A stretch of 64,000 nt of DNA from an uncultured Candidatus Saccharibacteria bacterium (GTDB taxonomy: Bacteria > Patescibacteriota > Minisyncoccia > Phycocordibacterales > UBA5272), in NCBI GenBank assembly GCA_964443675.1, contig CAYUDN010000001.1:10862-74861 (forward strand). The letters are read 5' to 3'. The position numbers and the translations under genes were made by a program. Positions 24,392 through 40,189 of this stretch are shown piece by piece. How positions within the stretch are numbered: the first letter of the stretch is position 1; every line of letters begins with the position of its first letter. The notes below the pieces were generated by a model. That model saw only the letters and a list, made by a program, of their open reading frames with translations, was not told the DNA's origin and searched no databases.

Positions 24392-24460
24392 AGCTGATCT
24401 CCGTGTGTATAAAGAACAAAAGCATTATACAACATATATACTGTATTTGTCAATATATGT

Positions 24461-24658: not shown

Positions 24659-24680
24659 TTGTGGACAGTAGAGGTTCGGT
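24659..24680 (-). repeat. Degenerate copy of the tRNA-Val 3' end (att-like scar)
   Basis: Plus strand gtggacagtagaggttcggtcc matches the acceptor 3' strand exactly, but its T-loop is degraded (ACCGAAC in place of TTCGAAT). Confidence 0.4.
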
Positions 24681-24795
24681 CCCAAATCTGCCTCGCTTTG
24701 CCTGCCTAAAGGCAAGGCAGACTCGAAGCAGATTCCTGACCTGTATTCGAATCCTCACGAACATGAAGCAGTTCATGTTCTTACTATCCACGAAC

Positions 24796-24826
24796 AAAAA
24801 CGGCACGGATTACCGTGCTCATTTTT
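24796..24826. terminator. Bidirectional intrinsic terminator downstream of tRNA-Val
   Basis: aaaaa-cggcacgg-atta-ccgtgc-tcattttt: hairpin gcacgg/ccgtgc flanked by an A-run and a T-run. Confidence 0.6.
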
Positions 24827-24834
24827 GTACTCGT

Positions 24835-24906
24835 GGACAGTAGAGGATTCGAACCTCTGACATCTACAACGTCAATGTAGCGCTCTACCAACTGAGCTAA
24901 CCGTCC
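24835..24906 (-). tRNA. tRNA-Val (anticodon GAC)
   Basis: Manual fold of the reverse complement: acceptor GGACGGT/ACTGTCC, D-arm GCTC-AGTTGGTA-GAGC, anticodon stem CTACA/TGTAG with loop TTGACGT (GAC), T-arm AGAGG-TTCGAAT-CCTCT and discriminator A. Confidence 0.85.
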
Positions 24907-25016
24907 CTATGATCTACTAGTATACTATATAACACCAATTTTGAAAAAGTAAAATAATATGGTATTATATCGCGTACCGGTGATACTTTTTATTAAAAGG
25001 GTTTCACTATAAAGAC

Positions 25017-25091
25017 GGCCCCATCGTCTATCGGTTAGGACATCGGCTTTTCATGCCGGTAAGCGGAGTTCGACTCTCCGTAGGGTCACCA
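25017..25091 (+). tRNA. tRNA-Glu (anticodon UUC), CCA encoded
   Basis: Collinear with E. coli tRNA-Glu: acceptor GGCCCCA/TAGGGTC (one C-A mismatch, one G-U), D-stem GTCT/GGAC, anticodon stem TCGGC/GCCGG with loop TTTTCAT (TTC), T-arm CGGAG-TTCGACT-CTCCG and encoded CCA. Confidence 0.75.
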
Positions 25092-25212
25092 ACGAAGATT
25101 TATCTTCACCACATTCGGTTGTTTTTACGTTGTTATAACAACGTAAAAGTAGTTGCAATATTTGCGTCATTTTATCTGTTATTTCTCTGATATAACAGAT
25201 AATGTTAGATAA

Positions 25213-25260
25213 CAAAAAAGACCCCCGCTTCGCATGACAATGTCATTTGATTTGGGGGTC
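25213..25260 (-). terminator. Rho-independent terminator of the SPFH gene
   Basis: gaccccc...gggggtc stem with an internal atgacaatgtcat palindrome, followed on the minus strand by TTTTTTGTT. Confidence 0.6.
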
Positions 25261-25278
25261 TGACCAGCACTGGTCTGG

Positions 25279-26217
25279 TTACTTGAGAGGGACTGTCGCC
25301 GGCACAGCCAGTTCGCCGATGATGGCCGTGCAGTTGGCTTTCGCTCCGCACTTCTCCACCGCTTCGACTTGCTTCTTGGCAACTTCCAGCTTGAGGAACT
25401 GCTCCGGCGTAAAGCCGACGCTGTTGCGGTAGGCGTTGTCCGCATTGGCGCGTTCGGTTTCAGCGCCCTTGCGATTGATTTCCGCTTTCCGGCGCTCGTC
25501 TTCAGTCTTTGCACGCTGTTGTTGCGAAGCAGTTTCAGCGAGAGCTTCGAGAACCTTGCTGGGAGGAGTTGCTTTGCCGACGATGACTTCCATCACTTCG
25601 ACATCGATGCCCTTGGCCTTCACGAACTCGCGCATCTCGGTGAGAACGACACGCTGGATTTCTCCGAGAATGTCTTTCCCTTCCTTGTTGAGCTGGCGGG
25701 TTGTGAGGGCTGTCATCGGCGTCTTGGCCACTTCATCGCGCACCGAGGTACGAAACAGTTCCTTAAGGTTCTGCTTGTACCAGTCAGGGCCGAAAGACGC
25801 ATGCAGTTTCGGGGTCTTGCCGGGGATCGGCCGGACCTTGATGTATGCATTGAAGTCGATCGGGATGTTGTCGACGGTGATCGTGCCATCCTTGACGTCA
25901 TCGAACCCTTCCGTAAACTGGAAAGGGCGCGTGTCGTACATGACGACGTTCGTCGTGTAGAAGAGCCACTTCGAGCCGGTGACATGGGGTTCTTGACGAA
26001 CACCGCCGTCACCGAACATCGTGAAGAACGGCTTGTCGATGAGGACGGCCTCGTGACCGGCCTCGACTTGCACCCGTTGCGTGACCATCACCATGAAGGC
26101 GATGAACAGGACGAACGAGATTGCGCCGATGATGCGCTTCTTGTATTGAGTCCAGAAACTGAACTCGTTTTCATGGCCGTAGCTCATGGGATTTCCTTTC
26201 GTGGGTTGTGTTGTCAA
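25279..26217 (-). CDS. SPFH/band-7 (stomatin/prohibitin-like) membrane protein
   Basis: N-terminal TM helix (IIGAISFVLFIAFMVMV) followed by an SPFH-type domain and an Ala/Glu/Lys-rich coiled-coil tail. An AGGAA SD precedes the ATG at 26217. Strongly G+C-rich codon usage. The three +strand ORFs overlapping it are rejected as antisense artefacts. Confidence 0.75.
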   Translation of the reverse strand: MTTQPTKGNPMSYGHENEFSFWTQYKKRIIGAISFVLFIAFMVMVTQRVQVEAGHEAVLIDKPFFTMFGDGGVRQEPHVTGSKWLFYTTNVVMYDTRPFQFTEGFDDVKDGTITVDNIPIDFNAYIKVRPIPGKTPKLHASFGPDWYKQNLKELFRTSVRDEVAKTPMTALTTRQLNKEGKDILGEIQRVVLTEMREFVKAKGIDVEVMEVIVGKATPPSKVLEALAETASQQQRAKTEDERRKAEINRKGAETERANADNAYRNSVGFTPEQFLKLEVAKKQVEAVEKCGAKANCTAIIGELAVPATVPLK

Positions 26218-26584
26218 AAAAACAGAAAATGTATCAGGAACATATATATCATATTATGATTATTATATTTTGTCAAGGCCGAAATTTTGCTTGATTTTAC
26301 TCACTAATACATAGTTCTATACCAGATACGGTATATAAACTAGAAGAGTTTTTGATGGTTTTTCTATGGAAAGATTGTAAAATATAGATATTATTCATAA
26401 TTAGTTAGTGCTAAAAGTCGATTTGGATACTTATTGAAAACTGTTTTCCATTTTATAATCTCATTTTCAATGGTGTTCCACCCTAGATAGTACTGGCTCA
26501 CCTTCAACAGCTAGCACTAGAAGGGTGCTTAAAGTAGTAAAAACAGTGTCTAAAAAACGCTGTTTTTACTATGCTTTTTTACCT

Positions 26585-26613
26585 TGACTTTTTACTACTT
26601 TCATGCTATTATT
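26585..26613 (+). promoter_or_regulatory. Candidate sigma70 promoter for the 26689 gene (TTGACT-N17-TATTAT)
   Basis: Read from the AT-rich 470-bp spacer between the two G+C-rich genes. A 10-bp hairpin gtaaaaacag...ctgtttttac lies just upstream at 26531-26563. Confidence 0.4.
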
Positions 26614-26688
26614 GTAGGAGTCACAATCTGTGGCAAATTGTTTCGGCAATGTAAACCGAGTTTGAACATTTACAAGGAGAGATAACCC

Positions 26689-27582
26689 ATGAACGGGATT
26701 ACTCAAGTCGTTCCTGCAACCGCAGGTCAACTCAAGCAGATCAATCGCATCATCGCTGATGCCGTCGAAAAGATCGTAACTGAACTCGGTCTCGACAAGG
26801 ACGGTGCACAGCGGGTCATCGAACATGGTGACGAACTCGTTGGCAACATCGGCGAGGTCACCCTGGCGACGCTCAAGGACTTGTCGGTCTCCGACAAGTA
26901 CAAGGACGAAGAAGTGAAGTCGAACTACGGCTACCTGTCGGGCTACAAGAAGCCGAAGGGTATCACTGAGCAGACCAACATCCTCCGTCAGCTGTTCCCT
27001 GGCATCGGCTTCGCTGACGAAAAGCTCGTCGAGCATGAAGTACCGAAGAATGCCGACGGATGGTTCGCCATTCCGAAGTGGCAGTCGCTCGCACCGACCT
27101 ATGGTGAAGCGGTGGAACTGGTGCTGAAGAAGCTGAGCGAAACCCGCAACGGTCGTTTCCAAAACTACCGTGAAAGCGAACTCGGTCCTGATCAGCTCCG
27201 CCAATCGGCGAAAACGGCAAGCGTGTTCCAGGAGCTCGCCGAAGAGCAGAACGGCTACGACATCCTCGTGGTCGCAGCCCAATTTGGTCTGCGTCACCGT
27301 GGTCGCTCAGTTCGCCGTGTGCGTGAGATCCTGCTCGGCAACGAGTTCGGACTCGGAGCGTTTGCTGTCGGCATCATGCTCCTCACCCACCCTGAACGAC
27401 TTGCCCACTACGACGATCTCTGGATCGACTGTGCTGGTGACGAGTTCGCTCCGGATGCGGATGGCGACTTCTGGAGGTCTCCGATCTTCATCTTCAGTGG
27501 CGTCAGGCTCAGGTTCGGCACCGACGGTGTGTCGGATGCGGACGGCTGCTGCGGTTCCGTCTCGGGGTTTCTTCCGCTGTGA
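26689..27582 (+). CDS. Hypothetical protein (297 aa), G+C-rich, unknown family
   Basis: A strong SD (caAGGAGAgataaccc) precedes the ATG. G/C-biased third positions. Acidic Gly/Asp-rich C-terminus. No motif was recognised. Confidence 0.55.
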   Translation: MNGITQVVPATAGQLKQINRIIADAVEKIVTELGLDKDGAQRVIEHGDELVGNIGEVTLATLKDLSVSDKYKDEEVKSNYGYLSGYKKPKGITEQTNILRQLFPGIGFADEKLVEHEVPKNADGWFAIPKWQSLAPTYGEAVELVLKKLSETRNGRFQNYRESELGPDQLRQSAKTASVFQELAEEQNGYDILVVAAQFGLRHRGRSVRRVREILLGNEFGLGAFAVGIMLLTHPERLAHYDDLWIDCAGDEFAPDADGDFWRSPIFIFSGVRLRFGTDGVSDADGCCGSVSGFLPL

Positions 27583-27638
27583 TCCTTGGATCTTGGGAAC
27601 TTGATTCTTTTGTTCCCTTGATTCTTGAATCCTTGAAC

Positions 27639-27666
27639 GGCTCGCTTGCGAGCCCTTTTTCTTTTG
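27639..27666 (+). terminator. Rho-independent terminator of the 297-aa gene
   Basis: ggctcgc-tt-gcgagcc hairpin followed by CTTTTTCTTTT. Confidence 0.55.
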
Positions 27667-28292
27667 GTCGAAGACCTCCGTATATTTTTTATATTTGATA
27701 TACTTTCCCTTGAGTCTAGGTTAGTGCATAGTAGTTCACGGATTACTATCACCGAACTCTTTCTCTATGAGAAATTGTAATCAGTATCATGGTGATCACG
27801 GTTACTATGACAGTGTTGTTGCTCTAGAGATACTGCTTACTACTTTTCAAGACAAATGAGCAATCATGTTGTCAGATAAAATACAGAATTATGAAGAAGA
27901 ACCTAAAAGGCTTTATGAGGCTTGGCCAGAAAAAGACTAGGCTGCCAATGAACATGAATACCCACACAGCCTTGAGCGGCCAAGGGGTTTCTGTGCTAGA
28001 ATTAGACATCTCACTTACTCTCTATGGTTGAGATTAATAAAATGAACAGAAAGTCTCCTTCTCAATTAGTGCCTGTGTTACTATACAACAAAACTATCAG
28101 TTTATCAAACCAATAAAAGACGAACCCAGTTTTGGGGTGAGATACTTAAAACCTTTTAAAACTCATTAAATTCCATTATCTCCTCCACTAACAATTCTCA
28201 ATTCTTTAGCCTCAGGGTTATATTGGTAGAGAGTTTCTACTCACACTTTACCCACATCTGCTTCTTCTGTATTCCATATATACTCTATCAAT

Positions 28293-29892: not shown

Positions 29893-29976
29893 TTGTGTAA
29901 AGGGTATATTACTATAGGTTTTTTGGGTATATTGGTATACACTGATAGATATTGAGAGATAATTTCTGTACGTCTA

Positions 29977-30357
29977 ATGAAAGAAATGACACCAAAAAGA
30001 ATTTTGATTATTGAAGATGAAAAGCCGTTAGCGCACGCGCTTTCACTTAAGCTTTCTCATGAAGGTTTTGAAGTTGTTACTGCACTTACTGGAGATGAAG
30101 GGGTGGAGTATCTTTCAAAAGAAAAGTTTGATATGGTGCTCACTGATCTTATTATTCCAGGAGCTGACGGATTCAAGGTACTTGAGTTGATTAAAGAGAA
30201 AAAGATTAAGACACACGTTATTGTTATTACTAATCTTAATCAAGAAGAAGATAAGAAGAGGGTCTTTGATCTTGGTGCAGCAGAGTTTTTTGTGAAGTCG
30301 AATACGCCAATATCCTCTATTGTTGAAAGTGTGAAGAAAAAAATACAATCTTCCTGA
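29977..30357 (+). CDS. Single-domain response regulator (CheY-like receiver)
   Basis: 'ILIIEDEKPLA...DMVLTDLIIPGADGF...' gives the receiver-domain D-D-K pattern. It lies immediately upstream of pilB. Confidence 0.8.
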   Translation: MKEMTPKRILIIEDEKPLAHALSLKLSHEGFEVVTALTGDEGVEYLSKEKFDMVLTDLIIPGADGFKVLELIKEKKIKTHVIVITNLNQEEDKKRVFDLGAAEFFVKSNTPISSIVESVKKKIQSS

Positions 30358-30386
30358 TATACTAAAGGTATCGTTATTTATTTTGT

Positions 30387-32072
30387 ATGAACATTGACAC
30401 TAACAACATAAAAGAAATACTCATCACTGGTAACTACATTAGTGAGGACGACGCAAAGAAAGCAGAAGATATTGCTAAGAAAAGTAATATTAGTTTTATT
30501 GAAGCACTTCGTCGTGATGGTATTGTAAATAGTGACATTGTTGGCCAGGCAACAGCAGAGAGCTTTGGTGTTCCTTATGCTGATCTTAACTCTGCTTCTA
30601 TTAGTGCAGACCAGGTGCGTAAGATTGACGAAGATACTGCTAAGAAACTACGAGTGGTTCTTTTTAACGAAGAGGAAGAAGGGTCAGTTACAGTAACTAC
30701 TGATAACCCAAAACAAGAAGGTCTTGCTAAGGAACTCGGAGCTATTTTTAAAGGAAAGAAAGTAGTGATTACCTATTCTTTGTCTGAAGACATTGATGCA
30801 TTTTTTATTTTTTATGAAAAACCACTTGATACAAGATTTTCAAAAATTATCGAAGAGTCAAGTGATCAAGTTGCTCCAGAAATTCTCGAAGAGATTTTTG
30901 ATGATGCGATTACCTACAAAGCTTCTGATGTGCACTTCGAACCACAAGCACGAGTAGTGGTAATTAGATTCCGTGTTGATGGAGTGCTTCATGAAGCAGG
31001 AAGATTACCAAAAGAATACTATGAGAATGTTCTTAATCGTATCAAAGTTAAGAGTGCTCTTCGTATTGATGAGCACTACGCGGCACAAGATGGTTCGCTT
31101 CATTACGATAGCAAACGAAATGGTGTGGCAGTTGATATGCGTACTTCCATTGTACCTATCGTGGAAGGGGAGAAGGTGGTACTTCGTATTCTTGGTTCGT
31201 ATGTACAAGGACTTACTTTTAATGATCTTGGGTTAACGCCTAAGAATCAAGAGCTTCTTCGAGAAGCTGCGGACAAACCTTTTGGTATGATCCTTGTCGT
31301 TGGACCAACAGGGTCTGGTAAGACCACGACACTGTATTCTTTGCTTAAGATGCTTAATACACCAGATACGAATATTACTACTATTGAAGATCCTGTGGAG
31401 TATAAGGTGCAAGGACTTAATCAAATACAGGTAACACAAGCTACAGGGTTAACGTTTGCGCGAGGACTTCGTGCAATTGTGCGACAAGACCCAGATATTA
31501 TTCTTGTGGGAGAGATTCGCGACTTAGAGACCGTAGAAATATCAGTGAATGCTGCGCTCACTGGACACTTACTTCTTTCTACTTTTCATGCTAATGATGC
31601 TGCAACTGCTATTCCTCGTCTTCTTGATATGGGGACAGAGCCATTTCTTCTTGCGTCAACAATGAATCTTATTATTGCACAACGTCTTGTGCGTAAAATT
31701 TGTGATCACTGTAAAGTAAGTAGCATCAAAAAACCTTCTGACTTCGACACTCCACAATTAAAAGGAGTTATGAAGTTTTTGCCATCCAAAAATCTTACTC
31801 TGTATGAAGGGAAGAAATGCGAGGCATGCGGATTCACTGGGTATAAAGGGAGAACTTCTATTTATGAAGTAATTAAGATCACACCAACTATGCAAGATCT
31901 TATAGTAAAGCGCCCCTCTGCTCAAGAAATTTGGAAACTTGCACGAAAGGAAGGTGCGTTGTCGGTGTTTGAAGATGGTCTCGAAAAAGTAAAGAACGGT
32001 CTTACGACTATTGATGAACTAGTGCGTATTGCACCACCACCAGATAAGCTTTTTGATGAAAAAGAAAAATAA
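30387..32072 (+). CDS. pilB: Type IV pilus assembly ATPase PilB (GspE family)
   Basis: Walker A 'VGPTGSGKTTT', 'ILVGEIRD' and a tetracysteine motif (CDHC...CEAC). Confidence 0.9.
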   Translation: MNIDTNNIKEILITGNYISEDDAKKAEDIAKKSNISFIEALRRDGIVNSDIVGQATAESFGVPYADLNSASISADQVRKIDEDTAKKLRVVLFNEEEEGSVTVTTDNPKQEGLAKELGAIFKGKKVVITYSLSEDIDAFFIFYEKPLDTRFSKIIEESSDQVAPEILEEIFDDAITYKASDVHFEPQARVVVIRFRVDGVLHEAGRLPKEYYENVLNRIKVKSALRIDEHYAAQDGSLHYDSKRNGVAVDMRTSIVPIVEGEKVVLRILGSYVQGLTFNDLGLTPKNQELLREAADKPFGMILVVGPTGSGKTTTLYSLLKMLNTPDTNITTIEDPVEYKVQGLNQIQVTQATGLTFARGLRAIVRQDPDIILVGEIRDLETVEISVNAALTGHLLLSTFHANDAATAIPRLLDMGTEPFLLASTMNLIIAQRLVRKICDHCKVSSIKKPSDFDTPQLKGVMKFLPSKNLTLYEGKKCEACGFTGYKGRTSIYEVIKITPTMQDLIVKRPSAQEIWKLARKEGALSVFEDGLEKVKNGLTTIDELVRIAPPPDKLFDEKEK

Positions 32073-32074
32073 AT

Positions 32075-33496
32075 ATGCCATCCGCTGCTCTTACAAAAAA
32101 GAATAGTGCTAAAGCAACCAAGAAAGTAAGTAAGACTGCCAAGGAAGTACAAGAAGAAAAGAAAGAAGAAAATGTAGCAACACCAAAGACGACACCTAAA
32201 GAAGTGGCGGTATTACAAAGCGTCACACAAGAACACAAAGAAAAAGAGAATGCACAAGAAAAGAAATCATTCTTTTCTTTTTTGAAACGCTACAAAGAGA
32301 CAAAAGAAAAGAAAGAGGATACAAAAGAACCTAACAACTCCCAAGGTGTCACTTCTTTAGAATCAAAAGTTTCTATTTCTGAGCCTGTGCGCGCAACTCC
32401 TGCACCTGAGAGAAAGATTGCAGCACGAGAACACCTATCGACATTTGGTCTTGGGAAAGAAAGAGATCAGTTCATTGAAAACTTAAGTATGCTTGTGCTT
32501 TCTGGAATGACTATTGTTGATGCGCTCACCTCTATCATTAAGCAGACAAAAAATGGAGGAATGAAAAAAATTCTTGAAAGAATGCTTCTTGAGATTGAGT
32601 CTGGATCGACGGTGTGGAAAGCTTTTCTTGCAACAGACCTTTTTAAGGGGTATACTATTTCGCTTATTCGTCTTGGGGAAGAATCTGGTAATTTTGCTGA
32701 GAACTTAAAAGTTGTCGCGCTTGAAGAGGAAAAGGATCGTGAGTTTAAGTCAAAGATTCGTTCAGCACTGATGTATCCAGTGTTTGTGCTTACTCTTACA
32801 GCGGTTGTCGGTATTGGTATTTCTTGGTTTATTCTCCCTAAACTTGCTAAGATTTTTGAGGATCTTAAGCTTACTCTCCCTTTTATTACACGAGTACTTA
32901 TTGGCTTTGGAATGTTTCTTAATAAGCACGGACTTATTGCTGTCCCACTTGGGGTTTTTGTGGTAGGGCTTATCGGGTATGTAGTATTTTTCTACAAAAA
33001 AACAAAATATGTAGGAGAAGTTATTATTTTTTCTATTCCAGGTATTAAGACACTTCTTATGGAGGTTGAGGTTGCTAGGTTCGGGTATCTTCTTGGAACA
33101 TTGCTTGATGCAGGGCTTCCTGTGACAAAAGCTATTGATTCTTTGGCGGGTGCGTCAGATGTGGTACGTTACAAGAGGTTTTATCTTCATTTACGGGAAT
33201 CAATCGAGCTTGGTAACTCTTTTGAAAAAAGTTTTGCGAGTTACAAAAAAATAAACGTACTTATCCCCGAACCAATACAGCAACTCATCGTATCAGGAGA
33301 AAAGTCAGGGAATTTGAACAAGACACTTGTGAAGGTTGGACAAGTACTTGAAGCAAAATCAGACACTACTACGAAAAACCTTACTATTATCATGGAGCCG
33401 ATACTTCTTGTGATTGTGTGGGCAGGTGTGGTATCAGTTGCGTTTGCGGTGATCTTGCCAATTTATAGTTTGGTTGGAGGACTTAATAATGTATAA
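32075..33496 (+). CDS. pilC: Type IV pilus platform protein PilC (GspF family) with about 110-aa Lys/Glu-rich N-terminal extension
   Basis: Two GspF repeats and three TM segments. Residues 1 to about 110 are low-complexity K/E-rich. Confidence 0.85.
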   Translation: MPSAALTKKNSAKATKKVSKTAKEVQEEKKEENVATPKTTPKEVAVLQSVTQEHKEKENAQEKKSFFSFLKRYKETKEKKEDTKEPNNSQGVTSLESKVSISEPVRATPAPERKIAAREHLSTFGLGKERDQFIENLSMLVLSGMTIVDALTSIIKQTKNGGMKKILERMLLEIESGSTVWKAFLATDLFKGYTISLIRLGEESGNFAENLKVVALEEEKDREFKSKIRSALMYPVFVLTLTAVVGIGISWFILPKLAKIFEDLKLTLPFITRVLIGFGMFLNKHGLIAVPLGVFVVGLIGYVVFFYKKTKYVGEVIIFSIPGIKTLLMEVEVARFGYLLGTLLDAGLPVTKAIDSLAGASDVVRYKRFYLHLRESIELGNSFEKSFASYKKINVLIPEPIQQLIVSGEKSGNLNKTLVKVGQVLEAKSDTTTKNLTIIMEPILLVIVWAGVVSVAFAVILPIYSLVGGLNNV

Positions 33497-33956
33497 CTTT
33501 TTTTTGAAAATTACTAAGAGTAGGTCAGTACGAGGGTTCACTCTTCAGGAGATTCTTCTTTCTGTTGCGCTTGTTGCTATTATCGCAGGCATGTCACTGC
33601 CAATGTATCGCACTTTTATTACAAGAGATGATTTAGATACAGCAGTTACTTCATTTGCATACGCCTCACGTCGGGCACAGGCACTTTCATTTTCTTCAGA
33701 TGGGGATACTGGATGGGGTGTACATGTGGGGGTTGGAGGTATACTACTCTTTAAGGGTGCAAGTTATGTCGGAAGAGATGCATCATTTGATGAGGTGACT
33801 TCTATACCAACTACAATTACCATCTCAGGACTTACTGATATTACTTTTGCAAAAGTAACTGGTGAGCCATACGCGACAGGAACAGTGAGCTTTACTTCAC
33901 AAGATAATGAAACACGCACTGCAACAATTAATGAAAAAGGAACAATTGACTACTAG
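33489..33956 (+). CDS. Prepilin-type pseudopilin / minor pilin
   Basis: 'RGFTLQEILLSVALVAIIAGMSLPMY' is a class III signal with G|FTLxE. The start ATG at 33489 overlaps the pilC stop by 8 nt. Confidence 0.7.
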   Translation: MYNFFLKITKSRSVRGFTLQEILLSVALVAIIAGMSLPMYRTFITRDDLDTAVTSFAYASRRAQALSFSSDGDTGWGVHVGVGGILLFKGASYVGRDASFDEVTSIPTTITISGLTDITFAKVTGEPYATGTVSFTSQDNETRTATINEKGTIDY

Positions 33957-36228
33957 ATTAAGGAGAGGGTTTTTTCTAGTAGAGATGCTTCTTACGAGTG
34001 CTATTTTTGTGCTATTTTTGGCTGGATTTTCTGGAGCACTGTACTATGGGCTTCAGTCGTCTTCTCTAGCCGGGGAAAGAGGGAGAGCAATGTCGTATGC
34101 AGAAGAGGGGCAGGAAGCAGTAAGAAGTATTCGTAATGCGAACTTCGCTAACCTGGTCGATGGAACGTATGGATTGTCGTACTCATCAGGAGCTTGGAGT
34201 CTTACAGGGAGTCAAGATACCTCTGGTATTTTTACTAGAACCGTTACCGTAGCGAGTGTGGGGTCTAACAAGAAAAATGTTACCGTTACTGTAACGTGGA
34301 GACAAACACCTTCACGAACAGGAAGTGTGAGTATGGAATCTCGTTTTACTAATTGGAAAACTATTCCTAATCTTGGTGTTGGTATTACTGTCAATGCAAT
34401 TGTGATTAATCATGGTCTCAATAAAGTCGCTACTGATTTTGCTCCTTATAAAGTGGGAACTACTACAGTAACTTTGGCGACATCAACACTTTTTGCTCCT
34501 GGAACATACACGGTTACCGCCGTAACAGATCCAGATTACACAACAACATTTAGTGGTGACTGTAATGCAAGTGGTCAGATCACTGTTGCTACTGGAAGTG
34601 CTAAGTTATGTACTATTACTCATGAGGAGAAGTTGGCCTATGTCACTCTTACTAATACTGTGATTAATCACGGAGGTAATAAAACCGTTACGGACTTTGC
34701 TCCTTACAAAGTAGGTTCGACAACAGTGATACTTAATACTCCTACACCAATTAATTCAGGAAGCTATCAGATTACAGAAGCAACAAGCTCTAACTACACT
34801 CTTACGTTTACAGGGGATTGTTTTACTAACGGAACTATTACTCTTACTTCTAATTCAACAAAGTCATGTGCCCTTACTAATGAAGAAAATATACAAGGTG
34901 GAGGAGGAAGTCAGTCTCTTGCAGGTATTACTATTTATGGTGATGGGTCTAATGTGCCAAAGTATCGTACCTTTAATCAGAATACTAATCAATTTAGTGC
35001 CGAGACAGGAACCTTTACTGCAACCGTTGGCCCAACATGGATTATTCGTGCTTCTCCAACACAACATATTGCACTTGCTGGGTATTACGACAACTCAGCA
35101 ACGTTAACCATTATGTGTTTTGATGGAACTAACTGGACTAAAGAGTTCGCTGCGCAGTCCGGAGGTGTTGGTAATAGGCATCGTTTTGATATTGCATTCG
35201 AGAAGACTTCTGGTAAAGCTATGGTGGTATTCAGTAAAGGAAGTTATGTGTTTGGTGACTTAGGCTACAGAACTAAAACGGGGGGCACAGGGTGTGGTCA
35301 AGGGTGGTCAAATGAAAGTATTCTTGCTCCGACAAGAACTTCTAACGATATTATGTATGTAAAACTTGCACAAGATCGTCGGATTGGGTCTAATCTTTTG
35401 GCGCTTACGTGGGTGGATACAAGTGAGGATATTTCTGCGCGTATATGGGACGGAAGTTCGTGGATGAATGAACCAACCGCAGTTACAGATAATAATCTTG
35501 AGCGAATTACCTCCTCCCATGATATAGAGAATATGGATATAGAGTATGAGTCTCTTTCTGGGGATCTTATGTTGGTGTGGTCTAATGCACTTGGTAACAA
35601 TGGAACAAACGGAGTTCGTTATCGAACATGTACAGGCGGTATTGCGGCGTGTACATGGAATCCGGTAACAACACCACCTTCTTTCCTTGATGATGCAACA
35701 AGCCTAGATATTTCCGCTAATCCAGCTTCTGATGAGATAGTATTTGCATCTATCGGAAACGCAGGCGGTGACCTTCAACTTGGTTATTGGAGTGGTAACG
35801 CATGGACAGATACACCAAATGCAGACACTTCATGCACGGTACCGTACACCGCTTCTAAGTTAGTAACAACGGGATGGCTTATTCTTGGAAGCACTACTCG
35901 TTCTGTTGTTGTGTATTCTGATCTTAATTCAACCAATATTAACTGGTATACCGGTAACGGTGGAGTGTTTACACGTCAATCAGACTTTACTCCTTCAACA
36001 CCGATAGCAAGTCCAAGAGGGTATATGGATATCTATATGAACCCAAGAGATTACGCACAGCTAATGTATTACACTTCGGATAACAATAGTGACTTTTTTG
36101 CGAAACGTCTCATGATGACAGGTACCTCTACACTCACCTGGACTAATTCAGACGGCGGCCCTCCTCTTGAAACAACTCTCCCACAAATCATCTCGTCTCC
36201 TTTTTCGTTTACTTTTTGGCAACAGTAA
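33907..36228 (+). CDS. Large prepilin-type protein (773 aa), candidate tip adhesin with tandem about 85-aa repeats
   Basis: N-terminal 'RRGFFLVEMLLTSAIFVLFLAGF'. Two tandem repeats 'VINHG.NK..TDFAPYKVG.TTV.L.T...GDC...G.IT...S.K.C..T.EE' lie at about nt 34400-34890. The start is ambiguous between 33907 and 33931; both overlap the previous gene. Confidence 0.7.
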   Translation: MKHALQQLMKKEQLTTRLRRGFFLVEMLLTSAIFVLFLAGFSGALYYGLQSSSLAGERGRAMSYAEEGQEAVRSIRNANFANLVDGTYGLSYSSGAWSLTGSQDTSGIFTRTVTVASVGSNKKNVTVTVTWRQTPSRTGSVSMESRFTNWKTIPNLGVGITVNAIVINHGLNKVATDFAPYKVGTTTVTLATSTLFAPGTYTVTAVTDPDYTTTFSGDCNASGQITVATGSAKLCTITHEEKLAYVTLTNTVINHGGNKTVTDFAPYKVGSTTVILNTPTPINSGSYQITEATSSNYTLTFTGDCFTNGTITLTSNSTKSCALTNEENIQGGGGSQSLAGITIYGDGSNVPKYRTFNQNTNQFSAETGTFTATVGPTWIIRASPTQHIALAGYYDNSATLTIMCFDGTNWTKEFAAQSGGVGNRHRFDIAFEKTSGKAMVVFSKGSYVFGDLGYRTKTGGTGCGQGWSNESILAPTRTSNDIMYVKLAQDRRIGSNLLALTWVDTSEDISARIWDGSSWMNEPTAVTDNNLERITSSHDIENMDIEYESLSGDLMLVWSNALGNNGTNGVRYRTCTGGIAACTWNPVTTPPSFLDDATSLDISANPASDEIVFASIGNAGGDLQLGYWSGNAWTDTPNADTSCTVPYTASKLVTTGWLILGSTTRSVVVYSDLNSTNINWYTGNGGVFTRQSDFTPSTPIASPRGYMDIYMNPRDYAQLMYYTSDNNSDFFAKRLMMTGTSTLTWTNSDGGPPLETTLPQIISSPFSFTFWQQ

Positions 36229-36232
36229 TTCT

Positions 36233-36748
36233 ATGCAACACTTTTCTTCACAAAAAGGATTTACTTTAGTTGAAATGGTGCTATATGTTGCTATTTGCTC
36301 ATTGTTTTTGGTTTCCAGTTCTTACTTTTTGTCATTTCTTATGGAGTCCAAAGTTCGTTCTCAGGTGATGAATGAAGTAAATCAACAAGGGGTACAAATA
36401 ACCACACTGCTGACAAGAACTATTCGTGGTGCACGAAGCATCGATGTGCCTCTGGTCGGCACTGCCTCTACTACGCTTTCCTTGACCGTGGTAGATGGTA
36501 CTCGTAGCCCAACGGTATTTACTTCCAGTTCTTCTGTGTTTACAATTCGAGAAGGGGGTAAGAGTTCTGTAGCCCTTACAAATCACCGTATTGTGGTAAC
36601 CGATCTTCTTTTCCAAAATGTATCAGCATCTTCTTCGCTTGAAAAAATAGTACGCTTTTCTTTTGTGCTTCGATACGCAACCACAAGTAGTAGTAATGCT
36701 ACGTATGAATATTCTAAAACATTTTCTGGAAGCGCAATTGTGCGTTAA
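36233..36748 (+). CDS. Prepilin-type pseudopilin
   Basis: 'MQHFSSQKGFTLVEMVLYVAICSLFLV'. The ATG at 36233 directly follows the previous stop. Confidence 0.7.
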   Translation: MQHFSSQKGFTLVEMVLYVAICSLFLVSSSYFLSFLMESKVRSQVMNEVNQQGVQITTLLTRTIRGARSIDVPLVGTASTTLSLTVVDGTRSPTVFTSSSSVFTIREGGKSSVALTNHRIVVTDLLFQNVSASSSLEKIVRFSFVLRYATTSSSNATYEYSKTFSGSAIVR

Positions 36749-36757
36749 TATACTAAT

Positions 36758-37171
36758 ATGAATCTACGTCCTCATGTACAACAACTTACTCGTGGTTACA
36801 TTGCCATGCTCTCCGTTATCCTCATTGCTGCAATAGGTACTGTGGTAATGATGTCTGTCGTTGCTTCTGGTGTTGATTCTGGTAAAACTAATCTTTCTCT
36901 TCAGCTTTCTGGCACAGCAAGGATGATGGCAACTTCTTGTGTTGAAGAAGCGCTTCAAGAGATCATTGATACCGGCACTACTTCTAAAAGGGGCATGTTG
37001 ACACTTGGCTCTAATTCATGTGATTACACAATCAGCACCTCTTCTGGGCAAACAATTCTTGTTAAAGCAACAGGCACAGCAATGACGGTAGTCTCAAAAA
37101 TCCTTGTAATTATAGCTTCTACCACCCCCTCTCTTACGTTATCCTCATGGCAAGAGGTTTCTGACTTCTAA
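36758..37171 (+). CDS. Minor pilin-like protein (PilX-like), tentative
   Basis: N-terminal 'QQLTRGYIAMLSVILIAAIGTVVMM' hydrophobic segment resembling the PilX/minor-pilin leader. No canonical GFxxxE motif. Confidence 0.45.
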   Translation: MNLRPHVQQLTRGYIAMLSVILIAAIGTVVMMSVVASGVDSGKTNLSLQLSGTARMMATSCVEEALQEIIDTGTTSKRGMLTLGSNSCDYTISTSSGQTILVKATGTAMTVVSKILVIIASTTPSLTLSSWQEVSDF

Positions 37172-37339
37172 AGCCTTTTTTGTCTGTTATACTTATATAC
37201 ATAGGTTAGTAAAGGTTATTCCTGTTGTCCGACGGGACAGCAAAATCTTTACAGAGGTTTTTCTTTTTTTAAGAAAAGCTCTATTTAAAAAGTTTAATTA
37301 GTTTCGAATACATTTTTGTGTATTCATAAAATATATTTT

Positions 37340-37795
37340 ATGAAAAACTTTACTCGTAACCAGAAAGGATTTACTCTTATTGAAATCCTTCTCGTGGTTG
37401 CTGCTATTGCTATTCTTGCCGGTATTGTGATCGTTGCTATTAACCCAGCTAAGCAGCTTGGTGATACTCGTAACGCAGACCGTCGTTCCGCAGTTAACAC
37501 TATTCTTAACGCGGTTACTCAGTACGCAATTGATAACAACGGTGTTCTTCCAACTGGTATCTCAACTACCACTACAGAAATCTGTTCTTCATCTGTTGCA
37601 ACAACTTCATGTACAGGTCTTGTAGATCTTTCAGTGCTTACTCTTAATGGTAAGTATCTTGGGGCTGTTCCAGATGAACCTCAGAAGACTAATGCAAATG
37701 GCGCAGGGTATATGATCTCTAAGAATTCTAATGGTCGTGTTACTGTAGCTGCACAGTTCGCAGAGCAGGGGGCAACTATCTCTGTAACCCGCTAA
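37340..37795 (+). CDS. pilA: Type IV major pilin (PilA-like)
   Basis: 'MKNFTRNQKGFTLIEILLVVAAIAILAGIV' is a canonical class III signal and N-methyl-Phe pilin N-terminus. The start is moved to ATG 37340. Confidence 0.75.
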   Translation: MKNFTRNQKGFTLIEILLVVAAIAILAGIVIVAINPAKQLGDTRNADRRSAVNTILNAVTQYAIDNNGVLPTGISTTTTEICSSSVATTSCTGLVDLSVLTLNGKYLGAVPDEPQKTNANGAGYMISKNSNGRVTVAAQFAEQGATISVTR

Positions 37796-37799
37796 TTGT

Positions 37800-38576
37800 A
37801 TGACGCTCTGGTTCCTGCGTAAGGAAGAGAAAAAAGGGAAGAATGATTTTATTTCTATTGCTTCCCACGAACTCCGTTCACCTCTTTCTATTATCAAGTG
37901 GTATACCGAAATATTGCTTGATGGTGATGCAGGGCCACTTACCGAGGATCAGCGTAAGTATCTTACGCTTATTGAATCAAGTAATCAAAGAGCAATAGAC
38001 CTTGTAAGGTCATTACTTAACGTATCCAGGCTCGACCTGGATACGTTTGGTATTTCACCAGAGGTTGTTAGCCTTTCTTCTTGTATCGAGGAAGCGATTT
38101 CTTCTATACAAGAAACCGCTTCACAACATTCTGTCGAAATTGTTACTAAAAGCGTTACTGATAGCACGCTCTCGCTTGATCGTCACTTAACAGTGATGAT
38201 GCTTAGACAGCTTCTTCTTAATGCGGTACTGTACTCTTCTTCTGGTGGCAAGGTTACTCTTGTTGCTCAAGAAGAAAAGAAACATGACAACGAACATCTT
38301 CTTAGTGACAGTGTGGTAATTACTGTTACCGATCAAGGGATGGGGATACCTCTTTCTGAACAGGAACATATATTCGAAAAAATGTTCCGTGCGAAGAATG
38401 TGAAGGATTCTGAGATTCCTGGATCCGGCTTTGCATTGTATGTGATTAAGGAATTACTTACACGTATTGGCGGAGCTATTTGGTTTTCTTCTAGAGAGGG
38501 TGAAGGTTCTACTTTTTCTATTGCTATTCCTCGTACAGGGATGCCAAAGAAAGTAGGAAGAACGACTCTCGATTAA
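37800..38576 (+). CDS. Cytoplasmic sensor histidine kinase (HisKA+HATPase_c only, no TM or sensor domain)
   Basis: H-box 'ISIASHELRSPLSIIKWYTE' and G-boxes 'DQGMGIP' and 'GSGFALYVIK'. It is only 258 aa and starts 5 nt after the pilA stop. Confidence 0.75.
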   Translation: MTLWFLRKEEKKGKNDFISIASHELRSPLSIIKWYTEILLDGDAGPLTEDQRKYLTLIESSNQRAIDLVRSLLNVSRLDLDTFGISPEVVSLSSCIEEAISSIQETASQHSVEIVTKSVTDSTLSLDRHLTVMMLRQLLLNAVLYSSSGGKVTLVAQEEKKHDNEHLLSDSVVITVTDQGMGIPLSEQEHIFEKMFRAKNVKDSEIPGSGFALYVIKELLTRIGGAIWFSSREGEGSTFSIAIPRTGMPKKVGRTTLD

Positions 38577-38609: not shown

Positions 38610-38658
38610 AAGAAAAGATGACGACACCTACGGTGTCGTCATCTTTCTTTTGTTTTTC
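38610..38658. terminator. Bidirectional intrinsic terminator (14-bp stem aagatgacgacacc-tac-ggtgtcgtcatctt)
   Basis: Lies between the convergent histidine-kinase and HTH-murA genes, with T-runs on both sides. Confidence 0.6.
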
Positions 38659-38674: not shown

Positions 38675-40189
38675 CTATACTCCTCGCACCACAGTGATGC
38701 GCGCACCGATACTGTTGAGGCGTTCTGCGATATCAGCGTAGCCTCGTTTGATGGAATACACATTACGAAGCATTGAGGTTCCTTCTGCTGCAAGCATGGC
38801 AATAAGAATGATTGCAGTAGGACGAAGTGCTGGAGGGGAGACGATTTGAGCGCCACGAAGTTTTTTTACACCATTTATAAGAGCTCGGTGAGGGTCGAGT
38901 AGTTTAATTTCAGCACCAAGACGATTAAGTTCTGTAAAGTAGATCGCGCGATTTTCCCATGTCCAATCATGAATAAGTGTTTGCCCTTCTGCAAAACAGG
39001 TAATCGGTACGAAGAAGGGGAGATTGTCATTGTTAATACCAGGGAATGGTTGTGTATGTATCTTGTCATGAGGTGCAACAAGAGAAGAAGGAAGTACGGT
39101 AATATCGACGAGTTTGGTTTTGGCATTCTTCGAAAGATATTCTTTTGAAGTTTTGTATACAAGTCCCATACGTTTCAATTTTTCGAGTTCAAGGGTGAGG
39201 AATTCAACAGGACATCTTTCTACGGTGAGTTTTGATTTGGTTACGATACCAGCTGCAATAAAGAACATACTCTCGATAGGGTCTTCACTGTTGTAGTGCT
39301 CAACATTACAGGTAATTTCTTTTTTACCGTGGATGGTAAGAGTGGTGGTTCCGATACCCTCGATCTCTACTCCAAAGGATTGAAGTAAAAAACAGACGTC
39401 TTGTACTTGGTAATTAGGTGGAGCAAACTTAATAATCGTTGTTCCTTCGATACGAGACGCAGCAATGAGTGCAGTAATCGCACCAGTGTCAGAGGACTCA
39501 TAAAGAGGGATGATACCAGGGTGGAGTTTTTTGTGGGAGATTTCATAGTAGTGTTCTTTGGTTACGACCGAAGCACCAAGGTATTCAAGTGCGTACTTAT
39601 GGGAAGCAACTGTTCTTTCTCCCATTTTGCAACCACCAGAGTGAGGGAGGGTGCATGATTCTGCGAAGTGGATGAATGCACCAGCAAAGGTGAAGGAGCG
39701 TATCTTTTCTGCAACACTTTTGTTCATTTTGGAAAAGGTGAGCTTCTTTGGTGGAGTAATTTCAAGTGCCGTATCGTTGTGGGTCCATTTGATTTTGACG
39801 CCAAGACTCTCTAAGAGTTCTTTGTAACGGTATACTTCTTCTATATGAGGAATGTCACGAAGCACGGTAGTGCCAGCGTTGACAAGAGAAGCAACCATCA
39901 TATTGATTGCACCGTTTTTGGAAGTGTTTGTTACAATCTTACCGTGTAGTTTGTGTCCACCTTCTACCTTAAAATCAATCGTATCTTGAATACTCACGAT
40001 GTTATGCTTAAGCACACTACTCATTTTGAGGAGTTGTTCTATGGTGACATTTTGGTTACCGGACTCAATGCGAGCCACTGCAGATTGTGAGGTTTTTAGC
40101 TTTTTTGCGAACTCTTCTTGAGTTAATCCTTGTTCTTCACGTAACTTTTTAATAAAAATACCTATTTTTTGCTGATCATTTGGTTCCAT
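38675..40189 (-). CDS. murA: XRE-family HTH domain fused to UDP-N-acetylglucosamine 1-carboxyvinyltransferase (MurA)
   Basis: Residues 1-65 carry 'IGIFIKKLREEQGLTQEEFAKKLKTSQSAVARIESG', an XRE helix-turn-helix. The remainder is MurA: 'SKNGAINMMVASL', a Cys loop 'HSGGCKMGERTVASH', and C-terminal 'IKRGYADIAERLNSIGARI'. It is one uninterrupted 504-aa frame. Confidence 0.75.
   Translation of the reverse strand: MEPNDQQKIGIFIKKLREEQGLTQEEFAKKLKTSQSAVARIESGNQNVTIEQLLKMSSVLKHNIVSIQDTIDFKVEGGHKLHGKIVTNTSKNGAINMMVASLVNAGTTVLRDIPHIEEVYRYKELLESLGVKIKWTHNDTALEITPPKKLTFSKMNKSVAEKIRSFTFAGAFIHFAESCTLPHSGGCKMGERTVASHKYALEYLGASVVTKEHYYEISHKKLHPGIIPLYESSDTGAITALIAASRIEGTTIIKFAPPNYQVQDVCFLLQSFGVEIEGIGTTTLTIHGKKEITCNVEHYNSEDPIESMFFIAAGIVTKSKLTVERCPVEFLTLELEKLKRMGLVYKTSKEYLSKNAKTKLVDITVLPSSLVAPHDKIHTQPFPGINNDNLPFFVPITCFAEGQTLIHDWTWENRAIYFTELNRLGAEIKLLDPHRALINGVKKLRGAQIVSPPALRPTAIILIAMLAAEGTSMLRNVYSIKRGYADIAERLNSIGARITVVRGV

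Follow-up and report, generated by a model that had tools for sequence, protein, structure and literature searches.

Modular type IV pilins are widespread, and the survey devoted to them lists CPR examples (PMC8179133). In Streptococcus sanguinis, PilB-vWA and PilC-lectin combine a pilin module, a linker and a tip-presented binding module, and in CofB of ETEC a beta-repeat spacer precedes the terminal binding domain (PMC8179133; PMC9934059); both layouts resemble the one proposed here for the giant pilin of a CPR pilus operon. SpaA_2-like repeats joined to an unannotated eight-bladed propeller are, however, not among the architectures described in the modular-pilin literature (PMC8179133; PMC9934059). 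Because its repeats and propeller reach no family threshold, a survey based on InterPro would overlook the giant pilin.

In Nanosynbacter lyticus TM7x, likewise a CPR bacterium, PilX2 of the Saccharibacteria T4P-2 is also larger than the other minor pilins of its locus and also combines a pilin-like N-terminal helix with a C-terminal propeller, which again resembles PLL-type lectins (PMC11623550). It has been proposed as a tip adhesin, and experiments showed that it is needed for host binding and not for filament extrusion (PMC11623550). The description of PilX2 gives it seven blades, RCC1 repeats and no recognizable PilD signal peptide (PMC11623550). Compared with this description, the giant pilin differs in having a canonical G|FxxxE motif, two probable SpaA-type stalk domains and approximately eight blades, and its propeller gave no RCC1 family match at E<=1. 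Neither the operon organization found here nor the linked kinase and regulator has been reported for TM7x.

The PilY1/PilC proteins of type IVa pili in Pseudomonas, Neisseria and Myxococcus are also large and tip-associated, carry a C-terminal propeller, which has been regarded as a conserved 'carrier' domain (PMC8179133), and are encoded alongside the core minor pilins. In the priming/tip complex, PilY1 acts together with four minor pilins. However, it is a non-pilin with a Sec signal that docks on minor pilins, whereas the giant pilin has its propeller covalently fused to a pilin. The PLL, PHL and BP39L lectins of Photorhabdus and Burkholderia are soluble secreted proteins with seven blades and no pilin fusion, compared with approximately eight blades here; their identity to the propeller of the giant pilin is 9-13%. 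With regard to control, PilG/PilH (Pil-Chp) and the cyanobacterial PixG/PixH-type proteins are receiver-only regulators encoded with pilus genes, as here, and affect PilB localization or activity rather than transcription (PMC11656802, 10.1101/2021.06.11.447907). They receive their signal from CheA-type kinases that have chemoreceptor input, whereas the kinase of our locus is a minimal class I HisKA/HATPase_c protein with no input domain and is accompanied by no chemotaxis-like components.

Gene content and boundaries of the operon

We analyzed positions 29977-38576 of a 64-kb contig stretch, the whole of which is referred to as the window; all genes of this locus lie on the (+) strand (Table 1). 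Family assignments and the sequence itself bore out the predicted compact type IV pilus locus, with the order receiver-only regulator, PilB, PilC, minor pilin 1, giant minor pilin, minor pilins 3 and 4, major pilin and a 258-aa histidine kinase. Several genes had been said to overlap, which holds for two junctions (8 nt between PilC and minor pilin 1, and 26 nt between minor pilin 1 and the giant pilin); the remaining junctions are gaps of 2-9 nt, including 4 nt between pilA and the kinase gene, apart from the 168-nt gap 5' of pilA. No terminator was detected between pilA and the kinase gene by the terminator scan, and the only one lies 3' of the latter, which places the end of the operon at the kinase. 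The locus is one transcription unit, a complete and conserved type IV pilus operon closed by a strong hairpin terminator. The AT-rich region before pilA scored no consensus promoter in the promoter scan; as a candidate internal promoter it is a possibility suggested by its sequence.

Table 1. Features of the pilus operon, with positions in the window
Feature	Position	Strand	Basis or remark
Promoter-like site	29936-29963		Upstream of regulator gene; promoter scan
Receiver-only CheY-like response regulator, 126 aa	29977..30357	+	Response_reg 1.7e-22, sole domain (Pfam)
PilB-type assembly ATPase, 561 aa	30387..32072	+	T2SSE 2.7e-121; MshEN/GspE-N 1.3e-7 (Pfam)
PilC platform protein, 473 aa	32075..33496	+	T2SSF x2, 3.4e-43 (Pfam)
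Minor pilin 1, 155 aa from ATG	33489..33956	+	Motif SVRG|FTLQE; maximal ORF 160 aa, TTG 33474
Giant modular minor pilin, 765 aa from ATG 33931	33931..36228	+	Motif LRRG|FFLVE; maximal ORF 773 aa from 33907
Pilin module of giant pilin, aa 1-158	33907..34380	+	Leader, alpha1 helix 20-78, beta-sheet head 86-148 (DSSP of models)
Stalk repeat 1, aa 160-241	34384..34629	+	Beta-sandwich (AlphaFold2); Cys pair 219/235
Stalk repeat 2, aa 246-327	34642..34887	+	Same basis as repeat 1; Cys pair 305/321
Flexible hinge, aa 329-337, IQGGGGSQS	34891..34917	+	pLDDT below 50
C-terminal beta-propeller, aa 338-773	34918..36225	+	Approximately eight blades; last strand 766-769 closes ring
Minor pilin 3, 171 aa from ATG	36233..36748	+	Motif SQKG|FTLVE; maximal ORF 193 aa, TTG 36167
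Minor pilin 4, 137 aa	36758..37171	+	Motif TRG|YIAML, prepilin-like N-terminus read from sequence
AT-rich intergenic region, 168 nt	37172..37339	+	Sole long gap in operon, 5' of pilA
Major pilin PilA, 151 aa	37340..37795	+	Motif NQKG|FTLIE; N_methyl 8.8e-8, strongest in operon; TIGR02532
Cytoplasmic input-less class I histidine kinase, 258 aa	37800..38576	+	HisKA 2e-16, HATPase_c 3.2e-20
Hairpin terminator, 15-bp stem	38614..38646	.	Terminator scan; between convergent kinase and HTH-MurA genes

Gene calls in the NCBI and Logan records match the 765-, 151-, 258- and 126-aa products, the 151-aa PilA being called in the NCBI record. Likely ATG starts yielded 155, 765, 171 and 151 aa for four of the pilins, and the start of minor pilin 3 is the same ATG in the gene call of L001. 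GAST residues account for 38-42% of the pilins versus 22-29% of the cytoplasmic proteins, a high content reported as the pattern of exposed pilins (PMC11623550).

The best NCBIfam match of PilB was type IV-A PilB (TIGR02538, 2.5e-146, 489 bits), under the equivalog cutoff. As in type IVa pilus machinery, a PilB-type ATPase is thus accompanied by a PilC platform; PilT, PilM/N/O and PilD, which also belong to that definition, were found to be missing from the 64-kb window, as had been stated, with no match among approximately 60 ORFs in the Pfam scan. The sole PilM_2 match in the window is FtsA, adjoining FtsZ. A PilB paralogue was detected neither in the window (tblastn) nor within +/-10 kb of the operon in approximately 50 related loci. 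Assembly competence would accordingly rest on genes assumed to lie elsewhere. Homologues carry the names Pacebacteria, Parcubacteria, Paceibacterota or Patescibacteria, and the operon is best explained as encoding a type IVa-like pilus in an ultrasmall CPR bacterium of Paceibacteria type.

The PilC protein had been credited with a 110-aa Lys/Glu-rich extension. The composition was confirmed (K+E = 35% across the first 110 aa), but the tail preceding the first T2SSF domain is longer, approximately 125 aa (residues 1-125, nt 32075-32449), and is K/E/S/T-rich and probably disordered. The GspF profile alignment begins at residue 128, and the tail is approximately 65 aa longer than the profile expects. 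Tail lengths are 41-248 aa in the close clade compared with 10-40 aa in distant Patescibacteria.

Among the small pilins, minor pilin 1 is weakly GspH/ComGD-like (N_methyl 1.1e-3; weak NCBIfam matches to GspH, ComGD and ComGE), and minor pilin 3 is weakly ComGF/GspJ-like (N_methyl 2.5e-5; NCBIfam PRK10557 1.1e-4 and ComGF 1.1e-3). Minor pilin 4 had no family match in Pfam or NCBIfam; it lacks Glu5, as do GspK/PilX/ComGG-type subunits, and is kept at the same operon position in relatives (26-61% identity). PilA is 68-87% identical in relatives and is duplicated in some of them.

Architecture of the giant modular pilin

The original prediction would have failed if the 773-aa ORF were split by frameshifts. 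The ORF proved to be unbroken: the 765-aa protein recurs without change in one NCBI contig and in two independent Logan assemblies, and its homologues form more than 100 clusters at 60-76% identity. Its N-terminus carries a class III signal, LRRG|FFLVEMLLTSAIFVLFLAGF, with a short basic leader, Gly, a hydrophobic residue at +1, Glu at +5 and a stretch of approximately 20 hydrophobic residues. The giant pilin itself falls below the Pfam N_methyl threshold, and its homologue P0002 matches this family at 7.8e-6.

The AlphaFold2 model (mean pLDDT 85) comprises a helix and head, two beta-sandwiches, a hinge and a propeller. When modeled in isolation, the pilin module formed a helix (3-69) and six strands; the models thus display the pilin lollipop, a long alpha1 helix on an antiparallel beta-sheet head. 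Foldseek returned no significant pilin match for the isolated module, and the corresponding profile (A3) matched solved pilins through the N-terminal motif only. Eight Cys residues are invariant, which suggests four disulfides and would fit an extracellular protein. With a pilin module, a linker and extra domains, of which the propeller and the SpaA_2-type repeats are also found outside pilins, the protein has the composition of a modular pilin, and the earlier view of it as a genuine prepilin-type protein with tandem repeats and a beta-rich C-terminal domain was upheld.

The tandem repeats are real at the protein level and consist of two 82-aa units, whose self-alignment scored 229 compared with 36.8 +/- 6.7 for shuffles; at the DNA level they are too diverged, and TRF detected no tandem repeat. 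Both units fall under the Pfam SpaA_2 (PF19403) threshold. In the homologue P0003, however, five stretches match SpaA_2 at 8e-20, and its repeats are 43-62% identical to repeat 1 of the window. Sequence searches found no solved homologue of the repeats, and their Cys residues are invariant in 39/39 sequences. On the basis of the model, the repeats are probably rigid SpaA-type beta-sandwiches stabilized by disulfides. Variation in repeat number, whose comparison between strains had been proposed as a check, was observed between lineages (0, 2, 3, 4 or 8), but not within the close clade, where the number is fixed at 2 and more than 100 close homologues are all approximately 750-780 aa long.

Structure prediction, proposed earlier as a check on this protein, yielded the two beta-sandwiches and a propeller of 32 strands, that is, approximately eight blades, for which Pfam and NCBIfam contain no matching family. 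Its best solved structural matches were Photorhabdus PLL lectins at 9-13% identity, but WD40, cd1 and BamB propellers scored nearly as well, and the likeness of the modeled domain to lectins is at the generic fold level, with 9-12% identity. With approximately eight blades and this low identity, membership in the seven-bladed PLL-type lectins was rejected. A PilY1-type propeller (PF05567/IPR008707) was likewise rejected, with no sequence match and PilY1 not among the top structural matches, and so was a PilY1-type non-pilin with a Sec signal, the N-terminus being a prepilin motif. Considering the stalk and a propeller that is closest to lectins among solved structures, a modular pilus-tip adhesin is the best reading of the giant pilin, with Saccharibacteria PilX2 as an analogue and experimental precedent (PMC11623550).

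The further suggestion that this protein is a host-recognition factor was not supported by the conservation pattern. Conservation is highest in the propeller (72% identity) and lower in the pilin module (58-60%), which is unexpected for a host-range determinant and would fit a structural role as well. Giant non-pilin proteins of Elusimicrobia and Acidimicrobiales share this domain, which is reused in giant surface proteins that carry Sec signals or are rich in fn3, and distant Patescibacteria have a pilin+propeller gene without repeats in the equivalent place in the operon. The conservation of the propeller and its occurrence outside pilins make a widely shared ligand more fitting than a rapidly adapting host-specific receptor.

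The kinase and the receiver-only regulator

The phospho-acceptor residues of the regulator are canonical (D57, T85 and K107). The kinase has 0 TM segments and only 13 residues before the H-box region; its H-box (at residue 23) and N/G boxes are intact. Kinase orthologues in the close clade are similar (250-273 aa, 0 TM), whereas those of distant operons have 470-1260 aa and TM segments. A regulator gene precedes pilB in 17/17 close loci and in 15/24 distant ones, with unrelated genes inserted between the two in a few relatives, and the kinase gene lies 3' of pilA in 14 of 17 close loci, the other three being contig ends. Because the neighborhood is collinear throughout the close clade, synteny there is weak evidence. 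Across Patescibacteria, however, the operon is accompanied by a histidine kinase (HK) and one to three receiver-only regulators (RR). The distant arrangement is HK-RR(-RR)-pilB, and its kinases are 35-41% identical to the window kinase compared with 27-29% for an unrelated neighboring two-component system. This synteny supports the predicted pairing, and the kinase and the CheY-like regulator are probably partners.

A minimal PilS/PilR-like circuit had also been suggested. PilS is a multi-pass membrane sensor kinase, and PilR consists of a receiver, a sigma54-activator AAA+ domain and a DNA-binding domain. The kinase of this operon lacks both a TM segment and an input domain, the regulator lacks an output domain, and the linked regulators are all CheY-like (117-144 aa). 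The analogy is therefore with CheY-like motor modulators, not with PilS/PilR. Pil-Chp or chemotaxis-like control was also rejected: the CheY-like regulator is present, but the kinase is of class I HisKA type, and Pfam detected no MCP or CheW among the window ORFs.

Proposed mechanism and alternative explanations

We consider it reasonably likely that the operon encodes a type IVa-like pilus with a propeller-tipped, ligand-binding giant pilin and a kinase whose CheY-like partner acts on the motor. PilB and PilC would form the assembly motor and platform, and PilA would build the shaft. A priming/tip complex would comprise four minor pilins, namely the GspH-like, giant, ComGF/GspJ-like and Glu5-less GspK/PilX-like subunits, which the giant pilin would enter via its N-terminal alpha1 helix. 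The two probable SpaA-type sandwiches and the GGGGS hinge would then hold the eight-bladed propeller beyond the tip, from where it may bind a conserved extracellular ligand of host cells or surfaces, most likely a glycan. The soluble kinase, whose gene shares a transcript with pilA and is probably coupled to it in translation, would phosphorylate the regulator encoded at the operon head. Since the regulator has no DNA-binding output, it would act post-translationally on the PilB/PilC motor.

The same architecture could instead serve mainly as a structural priming or capping subunit, analogous to the PilY1 propeller, that assists assembly or counters retraction and is not an adhesin. We regard this as unlikely, although no other part of the protein is as well conserved as the propeller, the pilin+propeller gene is fixed at the same operon position across Patescibacteria, and the PilC/PilY1 propeller is a conserved carrier (PMC8179133). 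That the propeller is a tip-displayed enzyme of the glycoside hydrolase, lyase or sialidase type, remodeling host or matrix polysaccharide, seems very improbable: identity to any enzyme is approximately 10%, no catalytic motif or family was recognized, and lectins score higher. Quite improbable is a DNA-uptake (competence-type) pilus, in which the giant pilin would capture extracellular material or surfaces generally with no role in host association. The small pilins do have weak ComGD/ComGE/ComGF/ComGC matches, the window yielded no retraction ATPase, a gene for a TfoX_N protein lies 3 kb downstream, and CPR bacteria depend on scavenged nucleotides. However, the scores of PilB are far higher with type IV-A PilB or GspE than with ComGA, the TfoX_N synteny reflects only that the close clade is collinear overall, the invariant positions of the propeller carry acidic residues, which are unfavorable for DNA binding, and comEC and comEA are not in the window.

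With respect to the kinase and the CheY-like protein, these might not be a pilus-dedicated pair but neighbors as a result of compaction of the genome, or members of a broader phosphorelay with its output elsewhere. Such an arrangement would suit a kinase without input and a regulator without output encoded at opposite ends of the operon, the unrelated genes between regulator and pilB in some relatives, and the wholly collinear close-clade neighborhood in which synteny counts for little. We nevertheless judge it rather unlikely, as distant Patescibacteria, whose flanks otherwise differ, show the association again, mostly in the order HK-RR(-RR)-pilB, and as pilA and the kinase gene are transcribed together with no terminator between them.

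Gene content and boundaries of the pilus operon

All nine ORFs of the original prediction were found where it had placed them, on the + strand, and its description of the locus was confirmed with minor corrections. For PilB, the best NCBIfam model was type IV-A PilB, with a score under the equivalog cutoff, and no PilB paralogue was found in the window. The N_methyl prepilin motif was matched in three proteins of the operon, and the profile searches returned no family match for the 773-aa and 137-aa ORFs. Four cleavage motifs could be read off the sequence (SVRG/FTLQE, LRRG/FFLVE, SQKG/FTLVE and NQKG/FTLIE; slash, cleavage site), together with TRG/YIAML in the 137-aa protein, which is without the Glu5 residue. 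A missing Glu5 is a hallmark of GspK/PilX/ComGG-type subunits. Counted from ATG starts, the pilins are 155, 765, 171 and 151 aa long; the 765-, 151-, 258- and 126-aa products agree with independent gene calls in public records.

Features of the pilus locus and its neighbourhood (window positions)
Feature	Position	Strand	Evidence or description
Wzy_C membrane protein, 738 aa	19354-21570	+	Wzy_C/O-antigen-ligase domain (7e-18)
High-G+C island	24000-28000		0.47-0.50 G+C; adjoins tRNA-Val and tRNA-Glu
ORF in first island	25279-26217	-	phrog_200 'lipoprotein'
Receiver-only response regulator	29977-30357	+	Response_reg 1.7e-22 (profile search)
PilB/GspE-type ATPase	30387-32072	+	T2SSE 2.7e-121
PilC/GspF platform protein	32075-33496	+	two T2SSF domains
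PilC N-terminal tail	32075-32449	+	residues 1-125; K/E/S/T-rich, low-complexity
Giant pilin, maximal ORF	33907-36228	+	773 aa (765 aa from ATG 33931)
Histidine kinase	37800-38576	+	HisKA + HATPase_c
Terminator	38614-38646		15-bp stem
HTH-MurA fusion	38675-40189	-	HTH_3 2.3e-14
TfoX_N protein, 122 aa	41800-42168	+	TfoX N-terminal domain only (1.2e-18)
High-G+C island	56000-58000		0.47-0.50 G+C

The predicted overlap of several genes holds at two junctions (8 and 26 nt), but the remaining genes are 2-9 nt apart, except at pilA, which is preceded by a 168-nt AT-rich gap. The kinase gene does directly follow pilA, although it starts 4 nt past the pilA stop rather than 5. Because a promoter-like site lies upstream of the response regulator, the only strong terminator lies downstream of the kinase and the spacing is tight, 29977-38576 is most simply regarded as a single operon, in which pilA may have a promoter of its own. 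As had been noted, PilT, PilD and PilM/N/O are missing from the window: none appeared when about 60 ORFs over the 64 kb were scanned with Pfam.

The giant pilin and its propeller

The giant pilin occurs in identical form in one NCBI contig (125,748 bp) and in two independent Logan assemblies; its ORF is therefore intact and not a frameshift artefact. Its homologues form >100 clusters with 60-76% identity and nearly equal length (748-781 aa). A few carry a name (Pacebacteria or Parcubacteria), and many are labelled 'PilV' by JGI. Pfam hits to DUF2510 and Pect-lyase_RHGA_epim were dismissed as short sub-threshold fragments.

An AlphaFold2 model built with 39 homologues (mean pLDDT 85) predicted an alpha1 helix (residues 20-78), a small beta-sheet head (86-148), two beta-sandwiches (159-241 and 244-327), a GGGGS hinge of low confidence (329-337) and, at 340-773, a propeller whose 32 strands would form eight four-stranded blades, the first being completed by the C-terminal strand 766-769. 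An internal duplication of a two-blade unit was detected in the propeller (hhalign probability 96%). The beta-sandwich repeats of the window protein score under Pfam thresholds, whereas those of the homologous protein P0003 match SpaA_2 in five stretches (8e-20). SpaA_2 domains adopt the prealbumin-like fold that is characteristic of stalks in Gram-positive adhesins. The profile of these repeats gave no real match against PDB sequences, and that of the pilin module aligned at the N-terminal motif only, leaving its subtype (GspH/I/J/K, PilV/W/X) unassigned; Foldseek with a separate model of residues 9-156 returned nothing under E 0.08.

The tandem repeat is highly significant at the protein level (self-alignment score 229 versus 36.8 +/- 6.7 for shuffled sequences), and TRF found no tandem repeat in the DNA of the gene. 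Each unit comprises 82 aa and a linker of 4 aa, and two of its Cys are invariant. Variation in repeat number was observed between lineages, with no copy in homologues of about 600 aa from Microgenomates, Uhrbacteria and other Patescibacteria, two in the window protein, three in P0117 and P0120, four in P0116 and eight in P0002 and P0003. However, the number is fixed at two within the close clade, so that strain-level phase-type variation is not indicated.

Used alone as a query, the propeller retrieved 571 representatives among 1.84 billion (400 at E<=1e-10), nearly all in end-to-end alignments; one representative protein contained up to 14 matching stretches. It appears in three architectures: pilin+propeller proteins of about 600 aa; proteins of 1,000-3,000 aa in which an N-terminal propeller is combined with a Sec-type signal or anchor; and still larger proteins, reaching 7,900 aa, that enclose it, as in Elusimicrobia, where it lies among fn3 domains. 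It is not covered by any Pfam or NCBIfam model. The propeller is an uncatalogued family and probably an ancestral component of Patescibacterial pilus operons.

In Elusimicrobia (L056, L059-L061, L063) and Acidimicrobiales (L069/L073) loci, the 430-aa propeller lies inside ORFs of 2,000-4,700 codons, near which no pilus genes were found. The one such ORF scanned for domains (L060, 4,720 aa) contains many fn3, Ig-like and lamin-tail domains.

Within the close clade, the propeller is the most conserved module (72% identity, compared with 58% for the leader and helix, 60% for the pilin head and 63-67% for the repeats), with four invariant Cys and numerous invariant Trp, Gly, Asp, Glu and Arg residues. 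Such sequence conservation points to a structural role or to a ligand that is itself conserved rather than to a fast-evolving host-specific receptor, and the proposal that the giant pilin is a host-recognition factor fits it poorly.

The few CPR bacteria in culture cannot live as episymbionts without type IV pili, and to our knowledge the tip proteins and the regulation of CPR pili are known only for oral Saccharibacteria. The conserved pilin-borne propeller is common to another environmental group of much greater size, comprising Paceibacteria together with many Microgenomates/Parcubacteria lineages. The locus encodes a CPR type IV pilus with a modular pilin that would sit at the tip, a kind of system already known; it is well conserved and had not been characterised before, and the interpretation in the original prediction is supported in part. 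Among known systems, TM7x PilX2 comes closest in function. This minor pilin ends in a seven-bladed RCC1-type propeller resembling PLL lectins and is required for efficient host binding, although filaments are extruded without it (PMC11623550). In contrast to PilX2, the giant pilin has a canonical prepilin motif, a stalk, about eight blades and no RCC1 signal. It can be classed as a modular pilin in the general sense (PMC8179133, PMC9934059), and it failed the defining tests for PilY1 and the PLL lectins. A literature search found nothing specific on Paceibacteria pilins. The locus supplies exact domain boundaries for expression of the propeller and ligand assays, and a ligand, if found, could help to predict or capture hosts of uncultivated CPR lineages.

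The linked kinase and regulator

A scan of species-representative genomes yielded 80 loci and was followed by tblastn with the window proteins. About 20 close relatives share the order regulator-PilB-PilC-pilin-giant pilin-pilin-137-aa protein-PilA (one or two copies)-kinase, followed by a convergent HTH-MurA gene, in a neighbourhood that is collinear overall. In distant Patescibacteria the core order is unchanged but the kinase lies upstream (kinase-regulator(-regulator)-PilB-PilC-pilin-pilin+propeller-pilin-...-PilA). A regulator lies <=2 kb upstream of pilB in 17/17 close and 15/24 distant loci, and a kinase within the operon in 14/17 close loci (the other three are contig ends) and 16 of the 24 distant ones.

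All linked regulators are receiver-only (117-144 aa). The close-clade kinases have 250-273 aa and no TM segment, whereas those of distant operons have 470-1260 aa, mostly with TM segments, and are 35-41% identical to the window kinase, compared with 27-29% for an unrelated neighbouring two-component system. The simplest history would be that an ancestral pilus-linked sensor kinase was truncated and relocated. Catalytic and acceptor residues of kinase and regulator are intact. The pair is a minimal kinase/CheY system tied to the pilus operon; the PilS/PilR-like circuit that had been proposed failed the defining tests, as did membership of Pil-Chp. The locus suggests that this very simple circuit is one of few signalling systems in these reduced genomes, and our literature search found no paper tying CPR pili to a kinase/CheY pair.

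The PilC tail has 41-248 aa of non-conserved sequence in close relatives (L003-L023, L068) and 10-40 aa in distant Patescibacteria; the long form is clade-specific and co-occurs with the sensor-less kinase.

Several loci differ in detail. In three of them (L014, L016 and L017, at about 1-2 kb and 16.5-19.5 kb), another two-component pair, unrelated to that of the operon, lies close by and comprises a 7-8-TM kinase (528-558 aa) and a receiver-only regulator (135-141 aa) with 27-29% identity to the window pair. Between regulator and pilB, L068 has an unrelated gene for a 608-aa protein (1121-2947), and L014 has, on the opposite strand, one for a 344-aa Thr/Pro-rich protein (3421-4455). The MurA (UDP-GlcNAc 1-carboxyvinyltransferase) with an N-terminal XRE-type HTH adjoins the operon in all close relatives (75-87% identity). 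Many MAGs with the Patescibacteria-type operon (L003-L023, L025, L027, L029 and others) are titled 'uncultured Candidatus Saccharibacteria', 'Gammaproteobacteria' or 'Pseudomonadales', and one 'Methanoperedens'; because the rest of the clade is titled Paceibacterota, Parcubacteria or Patescibacteria, these are probably placeholder or mis-binned labels.

Readings of the locus and its neighbourhood

The best-supported model, in which we place moderate confidence, combines a tip-borne propeller pilin with a kinase and regulator that tune the motor. PilB and PilC would assemble PilA onto a primer of four minor pilins, and the giant pilin, as part of this primer, would end at the tip. There the two SpaA-type domains would act as a spacer, the hinge would give the propeller freedom, and the propeller would bind a conserved ligand, probably a glycan. 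Kinase and regulator, through putative phosphotransfer, would modulate the motor post-translationally. Precedents for such modulation are PilG/PilH, which affect PilB localisation (PMC11656802), and cyanobacterial regulators, which interact with the pilus motor (10.1101/2021.06.11.447907).

A broader and distinctly more tentative reading, which we consider rather unlikely, is that Patescibacterial pilus operons carry two ancestral, undescribed parts: a dedicated phosphorelay of histidine kinase and CheY-like regulators only, and a new propeller family as ligand-binding tip. The former may act on the pilus motor at the post-translational level. Its kinase may, in this Paceibacteria clade, have been stripped of all sensor and membrane domains and coupled to the major pilin gene, whereby kinase dose would report pilin supply, and PilC could concurrently have acquired its hypervariable disordered tail as a possible docking site. 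The eight-bladed family may be the conserved ligand-binding tip of Patescibacterial pili, and the fact that Elusimicrobia and Acidimicrobiales reuse it in giant adhesins would be a sign that episymbionts attach to a common, widespread receptor.

Four rival explanations were scored separately. The giant pilin might have a PilY1-like priming or cap role. The propeller might instead be a tip-borne enzyme, and the kinase/regulator pair might be unrelated to the pilus, a reading to be set beside the recurrence of both genes in distant operons. The operon might also build a DNA-uptake pilus. A TfoX_N gene lies 3 kb past the operon and is syntenic in close relatives; since the whole neighbourhood is collinear there, this gives no specific link to the pilus, and we rejected the gene as a sign of a competence pilus.

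Upstream, the 738-aa Wzy_C protein stands at the end of a 23-kb glycan cluster (1-23 kb) with glycosyltransferases, sugar epimerases/dehydratases, a DegT aminotransferase, RmlC and a flippase. Its domain is also found in pilin O-oligosaccharyltransferases (PglL/TfpO), and by analogy it might glycosylate Ser/Thr-rich pilins. The two islands of high G+C (background about 0.39) contain ORFs overlapping on both strands, with no Pfam match, no Rfam family and a sole phrog match, and may be foreign DNA.
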